The notes beneath the pieces are model-generated. The model was not told the DNA's origin, did no database searches, and was given only the letters and a program-made list of their open reading frames with translations. Shown here piece after piece: positions 18,822 through 50,469 of a stretch of DNA of 64,000 nucleotides; position 1 is the first letter of the stretch, and each line of letters opens with the position of its first letter. Source of the stretch: Centroscyllium fabricii (lineage: Eukaryota); contig JBNRSN020000007.1 of assembly GCA_051313645.2 (NCBI GenBank), positions 253,084,001 to 253,148,000 of the forward strand, written 5' to 3'. The position numbers and the translations under genes are program-made.

Positions 18822-19500
18822 AAGAAGTCACACAACACCAGGTTATAGAATCATAGAATCCCTACAGTGCAGATAGAGGCCATTTCGGCCCATCGAGCCT
18901 GCACCGACACACATCCCACCCTATCCCCGTAACTCCACATATTCCCACCCTATCCCCGTAACCCCACATATTTAATCCCCCTAACACTAAGGGTCAATTT
19001 ATCATGGCCAATCAACCTAACCCGCACATCTTTGGACTGTGGGAGGAAACCGGAGCACCCGGAGGAAACCCACGCAGACACGGGGAGAATGTGCAAACGC
19101 GAGGCCGGATTTGAACCCGGGCCCCTAGCACTGTGAGGCAACAGTGCTAACCACTATGCCACCGTCCAACAGTTTTATTTGAAATCTCAAGCTTTCGGAG
19201 CGCTGCTCCTTCCTCAGGTGAAGTGACGAGATTCACATAACACCTCAGCTGAGAGACATCAAAGGTGTTCTAACATATCAGTCAGCCTGAGATCAAAGGG
19301 TGCAGTCACAAAGAGTCAAATGTTACAGTCTGCTGTCTGTGAAAATCCCACAGAATGATTAAAAAAAAAAAAAGGATTTTTCTTACTGAAAATCGCAGAA
19401 CAAGCCAAAGATGATTCGAGTCTGGATGACTCTACGTCAGGCGGGGTCACATGTAGCGCGACATAAATCCAATATCACGGTTGAGGCCGTGCTCATGGGT
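18822..19500 (-). mobile_element. Penelope-like element 3' fragment (family A) with hammerhead motif
   Basis: Minus strand 19497-19447 encodes HEHGLNRDIGFMSRYM*, a Penelope GIY-YIG-type C-terminus. Hammerhead core CTGAGGA..GAAAGCTT at 19185-19221; split by a V-SINE. Confidence 0.8.
18846..19164 (-). mobile_element. V-SINE (HE1-like) with short tail
   Basis: Same head and V-domain as the 8843 copy; tail GGGCCGAAATGGCCTCTATCTGCACTGTAGGGATTCTATGATTCTA. Confidence 0.88.
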
Positions 19501-21454
19501 TTCTCTGGAGTTTAGAAGAATGAGTTCAGGTGATCTCATTGAAACATACAAAATTCTTACAGGGCTTGACAGGGTAGATGCAGGGAGGATGTTTCCCCTG
19601 GCTGGGGAGTCTAGAACCAGGGGTCACAGTCTCAGAATAAGGGGTCGGCCAATTAGGACTGAGATTTCTTCACACAGAAGGTGGTGAATCTTTGGAATTT
19701 TCTACCCCAGAGGGCTGTGGAGGCTCAATCATTGTGTATATTCAAGACAGAGATCGATAGATTTTTGGATATTAAGGGAATCAAGGGATATGGGGATAGT
19801 GCAGGAAAGTGAAGATGAGGTAGAAGATCAGCCATGAACTTAGGGAATGGTGGAGCAGACTCGAGGGACGGAATGGCCTACTACTCCTCCTAGTTCTTAT
19901 GTTCTTGTGTTCATTTAAGCATCAGTGCTCAGACCGAACTATCTATTAAGAAAAATGAACACAACTTGAACTTCCCTTGATTTCAGGAATGCCAGTCGCC
20001 CCACCTCCCTGTGAGTTAGTATTGCGGCTGAATTATAGATGATGTGTAGAGTGGCTACCAAAGCAGAAAAGTAGATTGCCCCTCCTAGAAGTGACGAGTC
20101 ATATTAAAAAATAAAAAATTCTAAACTGCATAATCCCAGTACTGCGTACTGATTTGTGATGGTTGCTTCAGTATATTCAGATATATTTCTGTCACATTAT
20201 CTTTTGTCAGAATCTCTGTGCATAACCACTTAATGCACAATAGGGTAAGTGTTGCGACACTGCGCTCCCAGGATGGAACCTCACTTGATGGGAGTGCAGA
20301 TCGAATAATTGGGCGTGCAGATCAGCATGCCCGATTCACTGGTTCCTTCCGTTCTTTGCTTTGTAAAACGTTTGGGGCCAGTTTTCAGTATTAGAGCAAA
20401 TTTTGCAAATTGACTTTTATGCATGCTTAATGTGTGTCCATGTCACACAGCAAGTCATGCTGACTTCTGTACGCGATCTTCTGATATATATCCCTGTCAA
20501 GCAAGGCTTCATGCACCCTGCTTCAGTTACTTTAAGCATCACTTATTAGTGAATTTTACCCCACTTTCAACCTTGATGCTTTTAGACATAAAATGAAAGA
20601 ATCTCTGAAATATTTTATAAGAAGTTTTATAAAATGCACTACCCTCTGACCCAAGTTCCTATCAAACTAGACTCTCTATTGGGAAGGTAGCTTTGCAAAA
20701 ATGTATCAATATGTTCCAAATTGATATTTGTTTCTTGCCCCTAATGTGTGCCCATTTCATAGCAACATCATAGACTTAAATCAATCTACCAGCTCAAGTT
20801 CACTAACCTAGGAAGGGAGGTCAGGCATGTGAGTAGGTAAGCCAGTTTCACGATCCACTTTTTGGCTTGTTTCTGTGTGCAGTTTTGGCTCACGTTATGC
20901 TTGTCCTAGCATGGTGCTACTGTGAGTCAGAGCACCTACTAGTCATCCAGATTGTGTGTGATTTATCCCTGCTGTTTTTAATGCAGCTTCATGCTGCTGA
21001 AAATAAATTTAGCACAAAACCCATAATATAACCTCGTTGCATATGGTTTGCGCACCTAAAAGTGCATAGTCTACCCATTTTGCAAAACTGTAAGTAAGTG
21101 AGCTACACTCTCTACCAATGACTATCGATTAAAATTTGTTTTTATCTAACTTCAGTTCAATCGTGTCTTTCGTAAATTGATTAAAAATGGCTCTTGTTAA
21201 AAAGTCCCATTTTTCTATCGAATCTTTGCCTCCTGTCCAACGATGTTCACGAACGCATCAAATAGACTTGGCTTAAACTGCAGAAGTTATCTCCTTTCAG
21301 GGTAGAGGTAGCGCAGATGGAATAAAATCCGATTAATGGAATCCAAACTGAACATAAAATCTAAATAAGGAAAATTGAACTTTAACATTGTAAGATATTG
21401 CTGTACAATGCAATCCAGTATGTCTGAGTATATTTGTTTTGGTTATGTTGACAG

Positions 21455-22205
21455 ACTGGGCTTGTCTAAAGAAGAATCAGAACAGCAGACATCAGTACAA
21501 GTGGAAATAGAAAATGAAGCCAGTTCACCTGTATTAGCAGGACCATCTAAACAACCCAGTCCGGTTAAAAAGCAGGATGAGAGACTAAGGAAATGCACTA
21601 GAAGTTCAAAGGTGGACCTCAAATGTAGAGTGAAGCGGACTCTTATTAAGGAAAGAAAGACTGAACTTCCTGAACAAAGTGAGCAAACAGTTCCGTGCAC
21701 TGTTTCTTCTCAAGATACCAGGAGCCAGAAACAACACAATCACGAGGCCAAGGTGTTTCAGGCTGTTAGCTGTGCAGATGACGATCAAATTAGTTTAATT
21801 AACAATGAAGCTAGACCTGAACAGCTAGAAGAAATTCTTCCAAATAAATCTGCCTTAAACTCCAAACCTATATTGCTCACAGAAAGACCTGCAGGAATAC
21901 AATCTCCAGAACATACCAAATCTGATGGCCGTTTAGAATTGACTGATGTGCAACCCGCTGGAATATCCAAGGATCAGGTCACCTGTCTTACTATAAAGAG
22001 CGCTGTTTTGAAAAGTGAGTTAGAGCACAATTCTGGAGAGTCCAAAGACCAAAAGAGAAAGTCTTCCGAGTACAGTGCCTCCACCTCTGGCCCCGAGAAG
22101 AAGCCACGTCTTGAAGATCATCAGTCCTTTCGGACCGCAATTGATAGCTTTCGGACAGAAAAGGAACATCCTACAAAAGAAGAGCCAAAGGTGCCACCTA
22201 TTAGG
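21455..22205 (+). CDS. ASXL1: ASXL1 penultimate coding exon
   Basis: gttgacag acceptor, encodes (K)LGLSKEES...KDQKRKS...[14 protein letters not shown]...[12 protein letters not shown], donor GTATG; 751 nt, ends in phase 0. Part of ORF 21375..22421. Confidence 0.95.
22125..22133 (+). other. ASXL1: Putative +1 programmed ribosomal frameshift site UCC_UUU_CGG
   Basis: In-frame TCC TTT CGG within EDHQSFR, at the position of the ASXL1 UCC_UUU_CGU motif (influenza PA-X type), followed by a long open +1 frame. Confidence 0.75.
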
Positions 22206-25200
22206 GTATGTGCATTTAAAAATGTTGAATCATTACTTGGAAAGCAAATTTTGGTTTCCCGGAATTTGCGGTCAGCGGCGAAGCAAAGGCGTTCGCCGCT
22301 GGCCCCGAAGTATGCTTCGCGCAAAGATCTCGCGATCTTTGTGGCGAGAAGTTCGGCTTTTTGGATGCATAATTCAAATCGACGGAAGTTAATGGGGATT
22401 CCCAGCGAAGAGCTGCTGTGATGTCAACAAACTGTCTAAGCGGCCAATCAAAACGCAGCATTCTCAGACGGCAAACCAGGAAGTGGGTAACCTCCTAAAA
22501 TTCTAACTTTAATAATGTTGGAGAGAACAGGGAAAAGGCAAACCTGAAATAAAGAGGAACAAACTAAGTTTCTTAATTAGAATTTTTATTAAAATGGATA
22601 AATTTGACACTGCACAAAATTAAAATTAGTTTTTCAGGACCATAACCTCTGTTTTGCAATCAAAACGCTGTTAAAACCCCAGTTACACCTAATCGCTTTG
22701 GGTCTAACTTTTAATGGGGTATTTAACAGCGTAATTACTGTGGAAGAGCCGAGGTTTTCGTCCGTTACCATGATTTGAGTGATTTCACTCGGGGGTGGCT
22801 GGGGGAGCACAGCGCAGTCTGTGAGGAGCAGTGAATGACAGACCGCCACTTCAGGATTTCCGCATTAGGCTGTGCATTTGCTAAATCCTGAAGTTGTGGT
22901 CAGTTTCAAAGGTGAAGTGACAGCGAACGCTGCCAGTTCGCCGGCATTAGGACTGCAAATTCTGGACCACTGTTTTTAGATGGAGATTTAAAGCAATTTG
23001 GGATAGTAGCAATGCTGCTTTGTCTTTCTGCGTTAAAGTTTAGTCTAGGAAATGCCATGGTCTACTAGCCAAACCTTGCTTGCCAAAAATGCATTCTTCC
23101 CCTTTCCTACTTCCCTGTGCCAAATAAGAACTTAATTCCTCAATTCTTAAAATGTACAACCCAGTTTTTAAGTTGAGATTTTCTTAAACGTTTCTTCTTT
23201 CCTTTGTCGGTTGTCCCAGAATCTCTTGTATATGTAGTAACCAATAATGGCAAGGAATACTTAAAAAAAATAATCATCATTTTCTGGCATTGTTCACTGA
23301 ACTGAAGTCTATTTTTGCCTTGAGTTATTGCCGAATTTGTGCTCCTCGAGATGACCGTTGAAACAGTTTTGCGGTCAGTGGTGTTCCCAGGTGAGGTACG
23401 GTACAGGTTAGGTGCCAGGTAAAACTCCTATTTCATTTTCCCACAGCTATGCTAGTGTCCCCTGAGTTGGATTATCAGTTTAGTAACTAGCTAATACGGA
23501 ATTATGAGCAGTCCTTTTACTGTGAATTTGCAATTATGACCTGGAGTGACGCTATTTAGACATTTGCAGTCGTTAGGTATCATTATGTTGGCAAGTTTAC
23601 ACTTAAAGTTATGCACTTGACCGTGTACATGTCAACAGTAGCCTGCATTGTACGAGTAAATCTAGGTGAATGGTTTTTTGTGTGTGGGGGATTCCCTGCA
23701 ACTGTTGCCCTCCCTGGGGTCCCATCCCTAATCTCAGGGGGGACCTGATTGAGGTGTACAAAATTATGAGGGGCATAGATAGGGTAGATAGAAAGGAACT
23801 TTTTCCCTTAGTAGAGGGGTCAATAACAAGGGGGCATAGTTTCAAGGTAAGGGGCAGGAGGTTTAGAGGGGATTTGAGGAAGAACCTTTTCACCCAGAGG
23901 GTGGTTGGAATCTGGAACTCACTGCCTGAAAGGGTGGTAGAGGCAGGAACCCTCACAACATTCAAGAAGCATTTAGATGAGCACGTGAAATGCCGTAGCA
24001 TTCAAGGCTACGAACCAAATGCAGAAAAATGGGATTAGAATAGACCGGGCTTGATGGCCGGCGTGGACGCAATGGGCCGAAGGGCCTCTTTGTGTGCTTT
24101 ATAACTCTGAGAGATACGACTCTGAAAGATACTATCAGCAAGCCAATAGAAAACAGTACCATCATTGCAGAAAGCATTTTTATTGTTATTCAGCAATGGA
24201 AATAACATGCTGGTAAGTCTGCGCACATTGAAAATGCCAGAATTCTGGAGACATTATGCTTCAAGCGCTTGGTTTGCGTGGTCCCAGGCAAATCTGCTGA
24301 ATCCAGATTGAAAACCCATCATCTAGGAAATTCAAAAGGAAAGACATTTTTGGTTCTGAGTCCGAATGTTGGAGGTCCAAGCCCCGCTGTGAACTTGAGT
24401 ACACAAGTACACTGATGTTCCAGTGTAGTAATGAGAGTGCGCTGTCTTTTAGATGAGATGTCCCTGTTGCTTGTTTTGGTGGTTCAGGTAGACCTAAAAG
24501 ATCCCATGATGATACTTAACAAAAGAGCAGAGTTTTCTCCTGGTGTCCTGACCAACGTTCCTCCCTCTGCCAACAGAACCTTAAAAAAAAAATCAAAGGT
24601 CATTCATGTGCTGTTTGTGGTACCTTGGGTTGAAATTGTTCAGTTTGCCAACATAACAAAGTTGTTAAGTGCTTTAGAAACGCAGAGGATAGGAGCAGGA
24701 GTAGGCCATTCGGCCCTTCAAGCCTGCTCTGCCATTTTGATGAGATCACGGCTGATCATCCAAACCCAGCACCCCCTCCCACCCTCTCCCCATATCGCCC
24801 GACACCCCCAGCTCTAAGAATTATTATCTCACACACATACTCATAGGCAATTTTTAGTATCTCCAATTCACCTAACCTGCGTGTCTTTGGTGCTGCTAAG
24901 GATCTGATAAGGTGCTGCATAAATGCAAGTTCTTGCTATCTGGAGCTGGTTTTGTAGTTACCTTGGGTTGTACTGTTGTTGTTTTATTTAGAACAGGAAG
25001 TCTTCCTTTTTATTCCTGCTTTTCTGTTGATGTATATTCTGTTGGTAAACCGCAGTAGCATGGAGAGAGCAGACATCTGTACTTTTGTTCCTGAGTGTAA
25101 ACTACAGGAACATACAGGGATATTAAATTGCAGCTTGCCAGTGATAAAATGAGTTTTGTTTGCGCGTAAAATGTGACTTTGTTTTGAGGAGACGCCTCCA

Positions 25201-25872
25201 AATCATCATAACCTGCCTTTTCTCGTTACTGATGCTGACTGACCTGTTGTGTATTTCCAGCGTTTTCTGTTTTGATTTTAGATGTCCATTCATAGTTTTA
25301 TTCTACTGTGTTAGTGTTTTGAAATTATTGGCAAAAGTACAGAAGGACAAATGTCTCCAGAACCTGGTCCCCATCCCCAAATATTGCACAAAGTATATAA
25401 CAAGGTTGCTGCCTGTGTTGTAAATCCTCTTTCACAAAAGCATTCCATAGTAAATTTGGATTATTCTGCTTACAGATTCAACTCTCAAGAATCAAACCTC
25501 CATGGGTTGTCAAAGGGCAGCCAACCTATCAGATATGCCCCAGGATCGTCACTACGGTTGGAACAGTCAGCAGAGAAAGGACAGGTGCCAGGACACTTGC
25601 AGATATCAAAGCCCGTGCTCAGCAAGCTCGGGCACAAAGGGAGGCTGCAGCAGCTGCAGCTGCCAATGTTACAGTGGAGGGAGGGGGCGGGTGTAGTGGT
25701 GGTAATGGGCCAGGGGGCACTGATTCCCCCGGACAGGCCGACGGAAAGACAAAAGCTTTTGAACAAACTCCGGCAAAACATCAGTACAGAGCACAGCTAT
25801 TCCAAACCTGCGCAGCAGATGAACCAGAAAAATCCAGCGATGGAGAGAATAGTATTAAGCAAGGTGTTATAA
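22132..25872 (+). CDS. ASXL1: Overlapping +1 transframe ORF (ASXL1-TF), spliced 22132-22205 + 25476-25872
   Basis: [25 protein letters not shown] joined to [10 protein letters not shown]...STEHSYSKP...VLSKVL*; 156 codons with no stop across the splice junction; EHSY at 25789-25800. Confidence 0.75.
22253..22968. mobile_element. Non-autonomous TIR element (Harbinger-like)
   Basis: CCGGAATTTGCGGTC near the left end versus GACTGCAAATTCTGG at the right end; GC-rich ends with an AT-rich core. Confidence 0.6.
23733..24112 (+). mobile_element. CR1 LINE 3' end
   Basis: [25 protein letters not shown]..., nearly identical to the 12455-13285 subfamily. Confidence 0.9.
24350..24932 (+). mobile_element. 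Degenerate DeuSINE interrupted by an antisense V-SINE fragment (about 24674-24890)
   Basis: GTCTTTTAGATGAGATG..AAAAGATCCCATG and ATAAATGCAAGT end, flanking a reversed SINE tail. Confidence 0.55.
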
Positions 25873-28808
25873 TCGAGGAATGCGTGGAAAGCAATCTAGT
25901 TGACACAACACAGCAAAGTAAATTGGTGACAGCAGATGATATCCAGCAAACTGAATTGGGAGGTGATGCCGGTTACACTATAATTAGCAGTAAATCACCA
26001 GATTTATTAGTGGATGTGCAAGAGTGCAACCAAGTCACTGTTTCTCAACTGAGTGACACGGTGGTTTCTGATGGACAGGCTAACGGTGGTGAAACTGCAC
26101 TTCTCCAAGATGATTCACCCCCTGAAGCACTGGAATTGCCTGCAGACAGAGACAATAGTTATACAGAATCCAGCAAAAATCTTAAATGTGAAACTGTAAT
26201 CCTTTCAATTGCTGAGACTGACAATCCCCTGCTTCTACCCGGTGATCAAACCCAGAAGTCTGGTCTAAAAGATAAAACCACCAGCATTGAAGAACCTCTT
26301 CCAAAATATGTTTTCTCTGGAACAGTAATTGCAGAAAATAAGGATGCTGCAGTCATCAACACTATGGACATCCCTGTTGTAGAGGTGAAAACTGCAGCAA
26401 CTGATTCATTACCAAGTAATGACAGTGAAACTAAAGCAAACACTACAGATGTTTTGTCAACCCAACTATCAGTTGAATTTCCAGAAACTGATTCTTGTGA
26501 GCAAGAGGTTAATAGATGCACCATAGAGGCAATTGGATCTTCATTGATCCGTAAAGTAACTTGCTCTCCAACTTTGCAGACACATGAGGAAAAGGAGAGT
26601 GACTGTGTTGAATTAAACATACATAATCAGTTAGAAACAAGCACACTGCTGGAGACGTCAAATGAACCACGTGTTGCAGAGAAACAACTGACCTCTGTAA
26701 TAGTGTCGACGTGCTCGAATAAAGATCCCAGCCATTCATTAGCACAAAAACTTTCTCTCAAGTCTGAGAGGCTTGAAAAGCAGCTTGACTGTCCTGCTTC
26801 TGTTGACGCAGAAGAATGTGTGAAAGAACATCTTATAAAACAAGAGCAGGCAATGGCAGATGGCGGGCACCAATCGATGGAAGCTGGCGTTGCTGTATTA
26901 GACGATGCCTTTGAGCAGCTAACCAGCAAAAGGCAGCAAAACTGTGGAAGTGACATTAATAAGAATGGCTTGTATTATAAGACTGAAATAAATAGCCAGC
27001 TGTCTGATGAAAGTTGTGTACAACCCACAAATGAAAGAATATCTAAAGATGACAGAGCCCCTGTTTGTTCTGAAACTGGTGTAATTGTATTAAGTCCTGA
27101 TGCCTGCAAAGGGACTGATAATGGTGATCAGCACAAACAGATACATTTGTCCGAGGACGATCAGCTGCAAAAGGATGAAAGACCGAATGAGTGCCAGAAC
27201 CACAAGCCTGAAATCTTGCATAATTTAAATCAAACTGACTCTTTGCTACATCCAAGTGTTGAGGGGCCGAAAAGGGTTGGTAATTTTAATCGACCACTGT
27301 CATCAGTTGAAGTCAACAACCCACTAGTCACACAGTTACTTCAGGGCAGTCTTCCTTTAGAGAAGGTTTTACCACAATCTCATTCTGGTACCAAATTGGA
27401 GATAACTAGACTGCTTGTGCCACCTCCAATGCCTTCTGAGAGCCCGCCAGCTAAGCAGGAAAGAAATTTCAGTCAGTCGACTATTGATCATCTTGCACAA
27501 ACAACTGATCTCAAAAGCATAATCAGTGGAGTGCACAGTGGAATCAAATTAGCTGATTATCATTTGCATAAAATATTGTCCGGAGATTTTAGAGAGCTGT
27601 CTCAAAAACGACTAGAGCAGATGAAATCAAGCGTTTTGCAATCCAATAAGCATTATGTGGAATCTCAGATGGTCTTGGACAGAGATTGTAAAAGTCTAGG
27701 AGAAGGACCAGTTTTACAGGAGCAGTTAAATAGAACACCAGTTCTTTCTAGGCCTGTTGAAGAGTCTGGGCCAACAACACACAAAATAACCCAGGCTGCT
27801 TGCAGTTTTGAAGATGGCAACAAAGAACTAATGAATATCTCTTCTGGAAATACGCAAAGTCCCAATTTGCACAATCCTGTAATGAGAAGCATGCCTGAAA
27901 CATTAAAGCAAATCAGTAGCTCTACAGTGTCTGGCTATTACATTCCAAACACACCAAGCTTTTGTAAAAGTCTGGAGAGCCAGAACACTATTTTTGGTTC
28001 AGTAATAGCAAAGGCTTGCAGTGGGATGCCAGGGAGGCAGAAGGTGAACCATGGTTATTTGCATAACACTGTAGTTGTGCAAAATGATGGAAGCTGTGGA
28101 ACAACAGAAGTAATTAAGATTCAGTCAAAGGGTTCTGTTATTGAGCATGTACCAGTCATTGCCCAAACTTCACCAGAAAGGAATTTAATTGGTATGGACA
28201 GCATGCCAAATGTAAGAAGGGATTGGTTTCCTAAACTGCATGAAAGCTTTAAAGTAATCAAAACTGAAAATATTCCCACATGCAGGGGAATTAACAAAAA
28301 TCAAGACATCATTGGTATAAAGGACGGTGCATACATTCCATTTGATTCCAAAGACAAATTATACGTTGGACCAATAAAGATGGACTGCAACATTGGAAAG
28401 GTTATGAAAGAGACCGGTCTACAATTTCAGCATTCGTCCGAACATTCTCTCCTCAATTCCCAGCTCAGTATTCAGCAGCAGTTATACGGCAAGCTTCCTA
28501 AACTTTCTTTCAGTACCACAGGATTTAGCCATATCACTAACACATCAGTTTCTGAACTCTCTATGGGCAGCTTTCCAGCATCCCTTGCTGGAAGTATGAT
28601 GTCACTGAGTCAGAAGGCAAACTTTGGTAACCATAATTCTGCAGTTCCTGCTCAGACATTTGCTGAAAGCAGTGGTGTCAATGAAATGACGTTTAAATGT
28701 TCTTGCAGACTAAAGGCCATGATCATGTGCAAAGGATGTGGAGCATTTTGCCATGATGATTGTATAGGCCCATCTAAACTTTGTGTATCATGTCTTGTGG
28801 TGAGATAG
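25476..28808 (+). CDS. ASXL1: ASXL1 terminal coding exon (ASXM1, ASXM2, PHD finger)
   Basis: gcttacag acceptor; [24 protein letters not shown]...[12 protein letters not shown] (ASXM1); [11 protein letters not shown] (ASXM2, LVTQLL at 27324-27341); [36 protein letters not shown] (PHD from 28698). 1110 codons plus stop. Confidence 0.97.
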
Positions 28809-41445: not shown

Positions 41446-41663
41446 AATGCAAGAAGTCACACAACACCAGGTTATAGTCCAACAGTTTTATTTTAAATCA
41501 CAAGCTTTCGGAGCGCTGCTCCTTCCTCAGGTCACTTCACCTGAGGAAGGAGCTGCGCTCCGAAAGCTTGTGATTTAAACTAAAACTGTTGGACTATAAC
41601 CTGGTGTTGTGTGACTTCTTGCATTTGTCCACCCCAGTCCAACACCGGCACCTCCACATCATG
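41446..41663 (+). mobile_element. Palindromic Penelope-like mini-insertion (family A)
   Basis: 89-bp inverted arms (41444-41532 / 41539-41627), unique 3' tail, 12-bp TSD TCTACTTATGCA (41434, 41664). Confidence 0.85.
41537..41573 (+). ncRNA. Minimal type I hammerhead ribozyme (Penelope-associated)
   Basis: UCAC-CUGAGGA-A-GGAGC(UGC)GCUCC-GAA-AGCU-U-GUGA: intact core, 4-bp stem I, 5-bp stem II, palindromic AGCU in place of stem III. Confidence 0.72.
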
Positions 41664-44871: not shown

Positions 44872-45048
44872 AATGCAAGAAGTCACACAACACCAGATTA
44901 TAGTCCAACGGTTTTATTTTAAATCATAAGCTTTCGGAGCTTCTGCTCCTTCCTCAGGTGAAAAAGACCTCTACATTAAGGTGAAAAAGAGACTGACTTA
45001 AACAACGCACATGTGCGATGAGGAGAGAAATCTGATATCCCCCCCCCA
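44872..45048 (-). mobile_element. Penelope-like mini-insertion (family A) with hammerhead motif
   Basis: 12-bp TSD TCAATTTGTCTG (44860, 45049); minus-strand CTGAGGAAGGAGCAGAAGCTCCGAAAGCTT within 44924-44961. Confidence 0.75.
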
Positions 45049-48940: not shown

Positions 48941-49310
48941 TGTCTTAACCTGGTCACCGCTGCTGCTCTACTGACCTCTCCTACTCCTGCCCCATGATTG
49001 AATTATTCCTGGATATACCTGTGACTTTGTTTGACATCTGCACCAATCAGGGCTCTTGCTGGTTCTCCCAGAGCAGTAATCCATCCTGCCCCATTTCCCG
49101 ACCACAGTGCAAAGCCCACCCATCTCTCCCTTCTGGAAACACATTACTCCAATTTTCTCTTTCCTGCCCCATTCCCCAATCACTTCTATTGCCCATCCAA
49201 TCTGCATTGCTTTGCAGAATGTCTGCTCTCTTGCAAATAAGGTTGCCATTATCCACAACTTCATTCTAGGGGTACTCAGCAGGCCAGGCAGCATCGTTGG
49301 AGAGAAATAG

Positions 49311-49346
49311 AGTCGACGTTTCGGGTTCAGACCCTTTATCAAAACT
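49311..49346 (-). ncRNA. Minimal hammerhead ribozyme, U3-A8 core variant
   Basis: AGUU-UUGAUAA-A-GGGU(CUGA)ACCC-GAA-ACGU-C-GACU; GUC cleavage triplet. Confidence 0.62.
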
Positions 49347-49730
49347 AAAGTAGGGGAATGAAACACAAGCAGGAAGACGGGGTGGGGGGAAAGGAGGAAA
49401 GGAACAAGGAAAGACAGCACAAAGAGAAAAGACTTAGACGAGATTCTGTGGACAGGAGACAGTAGTTGATTCAGTGTGAAAAACTCTGGCAGAACAGCGG
49501 TGGCTGCCACGATAGAGAAAAGAAAGGCCAAATAAACATCAGAAAATGCTGGAAAAACTCAGCAGGATAAAGAGGTATATAATGGGAGCCGGAGTTATGA
49601 TCTGAAATTGTTGAACTCGATGTTGAGTCCGGAGGGCTGTAAAGTGCCTAATCGGAAGATGAGGTGCTGTCTTTCCTTGTTCCTCCCGCCCCGTCTTCCT
49701 GCTTGTGTTTCATTCCCCTACTTTAGTTTT

Positions 49731-49943
49731 AATGTGGAGGTGCCGGTGTTGGACTGGGGTGGACAAATGCAAGAAGTCACACAACACCAGATTATAGTCC
49801 AACAGTTTTATTTTAAATCACAAGCTTTCGGAGCTTCTGCCCCTTCGTCAGACTCTCTTTCACCTGACGAAGGGGCAGAAGCTCCGAAAGCTTGTGATTT
49901 AAAATAAAACCGTTGGACTATAATCTGGTGTTGTGTGACTTCT
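49731..49943 (-). mobile_element. Palindromic Penelope-like mini-insertion (family A) nested in family B
   Basis: Inverted arms at about 49771-49851 / 49864-49944; TSD TACTTTAGTTTT (49719, 49944). Confidence 0.85.
49860..49897 (+). ncRNA. Minimal type I hammerhead ribozyme
   Basis: UCAC-CUGACGA-A-GGGGC(AGAA)GCUCC-GAA-AGCU-U-GUGA. Confidence 0.72.
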
Positions 49944-50469
49944 TACTTTAGTTTTGATAAAGGGTCTGAACCCAAAACGTCGACTCTATTTCTCTCCACC
50001 GATGCTGCCTGAACTGCTGAGTTTTTCCAGCATTTTGTTGTTATTTTGGATTTCCAGCATCTGCAGTATTTTGTTATCGTTCATTCTAGAGGAATTCATC
50101 GCTATCCTGGATCTTAACAAAATCTGTGTCTCAGATTTTTTTCCTCTCGTTACTGTGGCTAATCCACGCTACTATAGGTTCACTACATCACTCACCCCAA
50201 CTGCTGTGACCATCAATGCCAGGTCCATCTTATTCCTTTGCTTTACTCTGGCGCCTCATCCTTTTTCAGCAGCTCAACCTCTACCTCCCCTCAAATTTTC
50301 TCCATTTTGTCTATTGCCACTTCTCTCAAGTTGCCCGAGTGTCCTAGCCAGTATCTCCACCCGCCTCTCCACTCAGTGCAGAGATAAAGTGTGAATTCTC
50401 ATCCTCTGTGATTTGAAACTTCACCTACATTTCCCTTGTCCTGACTCCTGTCTGAAGCAACCTCACCCT

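Follow-up and report, generated by a model that had tools for sequence, protein, structure and literature searches.

Positions 49311 to 49346 of the window (the whole 64,000-nucleotide stretch of DNA analysed here) carry, on the minus strand, what is very probably the minimal hammerhead that a Penelope-like retrotransposon family has in its 3' pseudo-LTR. U3-A8 is the consensus core of this family, whose source elements likely cut their RNA after GUC as a protein-assisted dimer. The window copy itself is truncated at its 5' end, no partner of its family lies on the same strand of the window, and it is therefore likely inert. Counts of core states across the source genome, a tree of the family and a second Penelope-type lineage with the same swap allowed us to assess how this tertiary pair has changed.

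A minimal hammerhead motif with a U3-A8 core

The letters and coordinates of the motif, re-read from the window, are those given in the initial annotation of this DNA. Its parts are listed below; the GUC cleavage site is predicted by applying hammerhead numbering to the sequence.

49311..49346 (-): minimal type I hammerhead motif whose core is U3-A8, with stems I and II of 4 bp each and palindromic ACGU replacing stem III
49346-49343 (-): stem I, 5' strand
49337..49342 (-): the two core nucleotides that form the swapped tertiary pair, U3 at 49342 and A8 at 49337
49336 (-): A9
49335 (-): extra A between A9 and stem II
49334-49323 (-): stem II, 4 bp with a 4-nt loop
49322-49320 (-): G12-A14
49319-49316 (-): palindromic ACGU
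49314..49317 (-): GUC triplet (49317-49315), with the predicted cut between C17 (49315) and 49314 in hammerhead numbering
49314-49311 (-): stem I, 3' strand

The motif has the features of Penelope-like minimal type I hammerheads, namely the core boxes (C/U)3-UGAN-(G/A)8-A, GAAA and UH with a pairable 3-8 (here U3-A8, with GUC), a palindromic 15.2-16.2 segment with no stem III loop (ACGU, 49319-49316), a short stem I (4 bp, where 4-5 bp are usual) and a pseudo-LTR position downstream of an RT and GIY-YIG ORF. It also has the unpaired nucleotide between 9 and 10.1 (A 49335) and the G10.1-C11.1 pair (G 49334/C 49323), both of which are listed as minimal-hammerhead features in PMC4209133. The core-adjacent pair of stem I is U·G in the window motif; this U·G closes stem I in the window's subfamily and is weaker than the C-G of older subfamilies, and every one of the 56 pattern-selected rows of an alignment closes stem I with U·G, C-G or U-A. 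A descriptor of U3-A8 minimal hammerheads finds one site in the window and none in 300 simulated windows (first-order Markov, of equal length), and reversed-pattern controls gave 0 matches in each genome-wide pattern search.

It had been proposed that searches requiring CUGANGA would miss this family, which is true by definition. An Rfam scan of the window (E up to 10) returned 11 matches with no hammerhead family among them, but it also missed six minimal hammerheads of the window that have a canonical core, so that the Rfam miss stems from the minimal architecture. Rfam matches to microRNA families at 49771-49944 were rejected as arising from a long inverted repeat.

In nearest-neighbour folding the hammerhead fold is not the lowest in energy, neither as a monomer (-5.8 vs -6.9 kcal/mol) nor as a dimer (-9.9 vs -20.7 kcal/mol). 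The same holds for the C3-G8 relatives folded, and the energies do not separate the variants from their canonical relatives. A 6-nt palindrome, GUCGAC (49312-49317), spans the predicted cleavage site in the U3-A8 family and adds to the lowest-energy two-strand fold, which is an alternative to the hammerhead dimer.

The host element and its surroundings

The motif sits 3'-terminally in a Penelope-like element, the tail of a GIY-YIG frame preceding it by about 250 nt, in a region where two Penelope-type families have inserted.

49595..49675 (-): last 26 codons and stop (49597-49595) of a Penelope-type GIY-YIG endonuclease, 5'-truncated ORF; the tail matches longer RT/GIY-YIG frames
49347..49594 (-): 3' untranslated or pseudo-LTR stretch, from the stop codon to the hammerhead, covered by the single-piece alignment 49274-49670
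49274..49310 (-): the element past its predicted cleavage site, as far as similarity with other copies extends
49664..49730 (+): start of the inverted arm of the U3-A8 insertion, interrupted by another element until 49944
49731..49943 (unstranded): inverted insertion belonging to the C3-G8 Penelope-type family, with a 12-nt direct repeat on either side
49950..49985 (+): inverted second motif copy, which shares the U3-A8 core and has A for G12 (49974); predicted to be inactive
19185-19221 (-), 41498-41534 (-), 41537-41573 (+): copies of the C3-G8 family
44924-44961 (-), 49818-49855 (-), 49860-49897 (+): further copies of the C3-G8 family

The same GIY-YIG tail ends longer RT/GIY-YIG frames at loci L049, L223 and L226, and 49274-49670 aligns in one piece with the closest other genomic copies at 89-94% identity. 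At L223, a 541-codon open frame with Pfam matches to RT (E 9e-5) and GIY-YIG (E 0.004), both below the curated cut-offs, is followed after 262 nt on the same strand by a U3-A8 motif; locus L224 has the same layout, with an RT and GIY-YIG frame and then a U3·G8 motif. In L049, a U3-A8 copy 90% like that of the window, GIY-YIG is preceded by a CX4CX2C linker, which corresponds to the zinc-finger-like CX2-5CxxC linker between RT and GIY-YIG that is a feature of the Neptune clade. As this type of linker is described as common to Neptune and Nematis (PMC8557442), the linker of the window's family is, judged by its residues, of the Neptune/Nematis type.

The inverted copy at 49950-49985 was initially described as sharing the UUGAUAA core and carrying a G12-to-A change in keeping with CpG decay, and we confirmed both, 49974 lying inside a CpG. 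G12 is the general base of the hammerhead and is A here, so this copy is predicted to be inactive. Its use as separate support for the U3-A8 core was not borne out: the two U3-A8 copies form the arms of a single head-to-head insertion (87% complementary over 98 nt, 591 nt apart), and their agreement is therefore not independent evidence and counts once. Such a head-to-head arrangement is described as typical of Penelope-like elements (PMC8557442), and in a read-through transcript the inverted arm would pair with the window copy.

The U3-A8 motif does belong to a second Penelope-type family in the window, as had been suggested, the other family being represented by six minimal hammerheads with a canonical C3-G8 core, an AGCU palindrome and a CUU triplet, four of which form two tight head-to-head pairs. 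The direct repeat around the inverted C3-G8 insertion (49719-49730 and 49944-49955) looks like a target-site duplication left by one Penelope-type element inserted at the hammerhead of another, the point of entry being where stem I and U3 of the inverted U3-A8 copy lie. Elsewhere, the window has stop-free frames of 350 codons (21369-22418, +) and 1135 codons (25401-28805, +).

Core states across the genome

An initial similarity search (30 loci) was biased to the core of the query, hence we counted exact patterns throughout the 7.2-Gb source genome, whose repeats suggest a cartilaginous fish; exact matching favours young copies, and inverted arms and segmental duplicates are counted separately. 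A narrow family, defined by 1605 exact matches to the part downstream of the core, contains 1384 copies that could be classified (the other 221 fall outside the core classification), with an intact core that is U3-A8 in 1066 and U3·G8 in 286. The remaining 32 have another base at position 3 and sort by eye into 4 C-G, 13 C·A, 10 A3 and 5 G3. When any 4-nt loop is allowed (the broad family), the exact matches comprise 4147 U3-A8, 364 U3·G8 and 108 C3 copies, U3-A8 making up about 90% of those classified. The first 100 of the broad-family C3 matches listed, again sorted by eye, divide into 51 C3·A8 copies with loops of the window's family, which is about 1.3% of the A8 copies and the level expected of single back-mutations, and 49 C3-G8 copies, most of which come from a sister family that differs in its loop; the window's family itself has next to no C3-G8. 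U3-A8 is the family consensus and not private decay, and the opposite outcome that the initial annotation had named, a CUGAUGA consensus with private changes in the window copy, does not appear in the genome-wide counts.

Tabulating positions 3 and 8 had been expected to give C-G or U-A, rarely mixed. U-A does dominate, but U3·G8 accounts for 286 of the 1384 classified narrow-family copies and, in the window's own subfamily (272 exact matches), for 30 of the first 100 listed, the other 70 being U-A by eye. This wobble state is common in the youngest subfamilies. UUGAUGA is the core of about 335 broad-family copies, where back-mutation would account for roughly 16 on a rough estimate; source elements with the U3·G8 wobble have thus multiplied, contrary to the expectation that mixed pairs would be rare.

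Two clusters of copies are also seen. Five exact copies of the window motif lie about 50-60 kb apart on G000:C678 (10.46-10.67 Mb) in a probable segmental array, which inflates counts. Four near-identical RT-bearing copies lie about 30-40 kb apart on G000:C113 (L216, L217, L218 and L222; 63.50-63.60 Mb); behind each lies a U3·G8 motif with GUU as its triplet, and the four are probably a segmental array as well.

Direction of change and a parallel swap

The tree of the window's family comprises the window and 75 copies with the motif and a GIY-YIG anchor; it excludes the core, stem II and cleavage-site columns, and its sample was deliberately enriched for U·G (40 U-A, 19 U·G, 12 C-G and 5 C·A among 76 rows). 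All U3 rows are part of a single 63-row clade (100/100), which has U3-A8 in its early grades and the 12 C3-G8 rows as its neighbours. With the root set by us among the more divergent canonical C3-G8 rows, and not inferred by the program, the double change from C3-G8 to U3-A8 maps to a single branch, the stem of the window's family. U3·G8 is confined to the derived part of the tree, where it is found in an 8-row clade with 7 U·G rows (98/90), in the window's 25-row subfamily (99/97) and in three scattered UUGACGA copies; a single origin of all U3·G8 copies (19 of the 76 rows) is rejected by the AU test (p = 0.0003). Within the window's subfamily, no flanking site was convincingly linked to G8 (25 rows; best p = 0.011, uncorrected, in a gappy column). 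We also rejected a C3·A8 intermediate subfamily, as C3·A8 copies stay at about 1.3% of A8 copies and four of five are scattered tips inside the U3 clade.

The initial reading of the core as covariation rather than decay is thus upheld in part: the U3-A8 consensus and the double change on one branch support it, but position 3 is fixed in the family and there is no C-G/U-A covariation among its copies. An alignment of 56 rows, illustrative because its rows were picked by pattern and are related, gives the 3-8 pair as C-G in 24, U-A in 19, U·G in 7 and other in 6.

The expected C-G/U-A pattern is seen in a second Penelope-type lineage with a different stem II, for which there are 11,491 exact matches (e.g. 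L233-L246 and L219); the first 100 listed sort by eye into 77 C-G, 14 U-A, 3 U·G and 6 C·A. The two arms of L219 differ, one being U-A and one U·G. The U-A copies of this lineage are of the form UUGAAAA, with A at position 7, and CpG therefore plays no part in its swap. In a tree of 52 rows, which takes in those 14 of 45 sampled copies of the lineage that have the anchor (the 4 U·G copies sampled lack it), its six U-A rows group together (89/90). They do so inside a 12-row clade (100/100) shared with C-G rows and well separated from that of the window. Position 3 changes 2 times once 5 C·A rows are dropped, and the AU test on the remaining 47 rows rejects one shared origin of U3 (p about 1e-34). 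The second lineage made the U3-A8 swap independently, and two parallel paired swaps are better evidence of selection on 3-8 than any within-family count.

Alternative explanations and proposed mechanism

A reading in which the window copy stems from a CUGAUGA or UUGACGA source and came by its U3 and A8 through private or post-insertion decay has next to no credibility left after the genome-wide counts, which refute it. It draws on the fact that G8 can become A by CpG decay if position 7 is C, and on the CpG decay at G12 of the inverted copy. Against it, C3-G8 is found in 4 of the 1384 classified narrow-family copies, and CG at 7-8 makes up less than 2% of that family (8 of the first 100 listed U3·G8 matches), yet a CpG just downstream is intact in 60 of 72 scorable copies, which excludes post-insertion CpG decay from a CG source. 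Furthermore, in 10 of 11 inverted insertions the two arms have the same state at position 8, and of the six arm pairs containing G, five are G/G (p = 0.011 at a 30% background). This agreement fits inheritance from the template RNA, and conversion between arms could add to it.

It is unlikely, though more plausible than private decay, that the hammerhead is dispensable in the window's family and that drift took U3 and A8 to fixation in source elements, with G8 to A aided by CpG deamination at 7-8 and the apparent compensation a matter of luck. The amplified U3·G8 sublineages (286 narrow and 364 broad matches) speak for drift, as do the four common dinucleotides at 7-8 (CA, TA, TG and CG), which are those that a CpG yields, the lack of effect of hammerhead mutants of an anole element on insertion in vitro (PMC11167929) and the success of Naiad elements without hammerheads (PMC8557442). 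Drift does not readily account, however, for a paired swap that arose twice, the second time with an A at 7 and so beyond CpG action, nor for the G·U wobble being the sole common unpaired-type state, with C3·A8 at back-mutation level; families with untranslated regions only about 65-75% like the window's also keep the core layout, which is partly forced by the search patterns. We give somewhat less weight again to a role other than cleavage, for example as a protein-bound RNA structure or a signal in reverse transcription, that would tolerate any 3-8 pairing. Minimal hammerheads are weakly active in vitro according to PMC4209133, which leaves room for other functions, and PMC11167929 reports no RNA-seq reads that start or end at the site of the anole element. 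However, the 3-8 pair is part of the catalytically active fold (PMC3884650), so that repeated compensation there points to that fold, and the anole motif cleaves with protein and is partly rescued by a 3-8 double mutant (PMC11167929).

We therefore retain a cleaving hammerhead in the source elements as the preferred reading. In the model of PMC4209133, the palindromes of tandem pseudo-LTR motifs pair to give stem III, and the precursor RNA is then cut after C17, dimer cutting being weak and probably assisted, and the anole motif is reported to cut only with protein (PMC11167929). In the window's family, two tandem motifs would pair via the ACGU palindrome to build stem III, and U3-A8 would keep the Watson-Crick geometry of the 3-8 pair. 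Selection on source elements may have favoured a paired 3-8, under a constraint that is probably soft because wobble lineages still amplified.

A broader reading, which we put forward tentatively and as somewhat short of probable, is that this genome records the evolution of a catalytic tertiary pair, in which two independent swaps from C3-G8 to U3-A8 were followed by at least two multiplying U3·G8 lineages, and that G·U at the general-acid position is both a viable natural state and the stepping stone of the swap. One sequence frame exists here in C3-G8, U3-A8 and U3·G8 versions, with hundreds or thousands of amplified copies of each. This natural series makes it possible to ask whether the spread of a Penelope element depends on cleavage by its hammerhead.

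Comparison with known systems

The novelty of a U3-A8 Penelope variant that the initial annotation implied did not survive comparison with the literature. Cervera and De la Peña 2014 (PMC4209133) described U3-A8 minimal hammerheads in Cercyon Penelope-like elements of Schistosoma mansoni and retrieved about 1,300 matches with a U3-A8 descriptor, and their supplement has the cores UUGAUAA and UUGAAAA, both U3-A8 forms of the present genome. Perreault et al. 2011 (PMC3088659) noted that C3-G8 covaries to U3-A8 in several natural ribozymes and, citing their ref. 32, that U3-A8 cores had earlier been shown to be active in vitro; theirs is a survey across all domains of life and not of the window's element family, and its section 8 gives no U3-A8 rates. 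The U3-A8 variant is thus already published, our finding of it adds a host and a family, and the only fresh points are the two parallel swaps and the wobble sublineages.

As to the latter, PMC7151607 mentions a U3·G8 core that occurs naturally and carries a two-base insertion, and U3·G8 is therefore not wholly unreported. The text portions and supplement matches of PMC4209133 report no U3·G8 family, and a literature search of partial coverage turned up neither an amplified U3·G8 lineage of Penelope elements nor Penelope hammerheads of sharks, either of which the hammerhead-variant literature may nevertheless report.

PAc, a Poseidon element of Anolis carolinensis (PMC11167929), resembles the present case in being a vertebrate Penelope-like element with a pseudo-LTR hammerhead. 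In its 3-8 pair, single mutants were dead and a G3-C8 double mutant was partly rescued. Unlike the window's family, with its CX4CX2C linker of Neptune/Nematis type, PAc belongs to the Poseidon clade and has a canonical C3-G8 core. The closest parallel is Cercyon (PMC4209133), which shares the type I minimal architecture, the extra nucleotide after A9, the palindromic 15.2-16.2 segment, the pseudo-LTR location and the U3-A8 core. The two differ in host and element family and in stem II, which has 4 bp here and 7-8 in Cercyon; and beyond what is reported for Cercyon in the portions of that paper cited, the swap is here traced on a tree, is found twice in one genome and is accompanied by U3·G8 sublineages.
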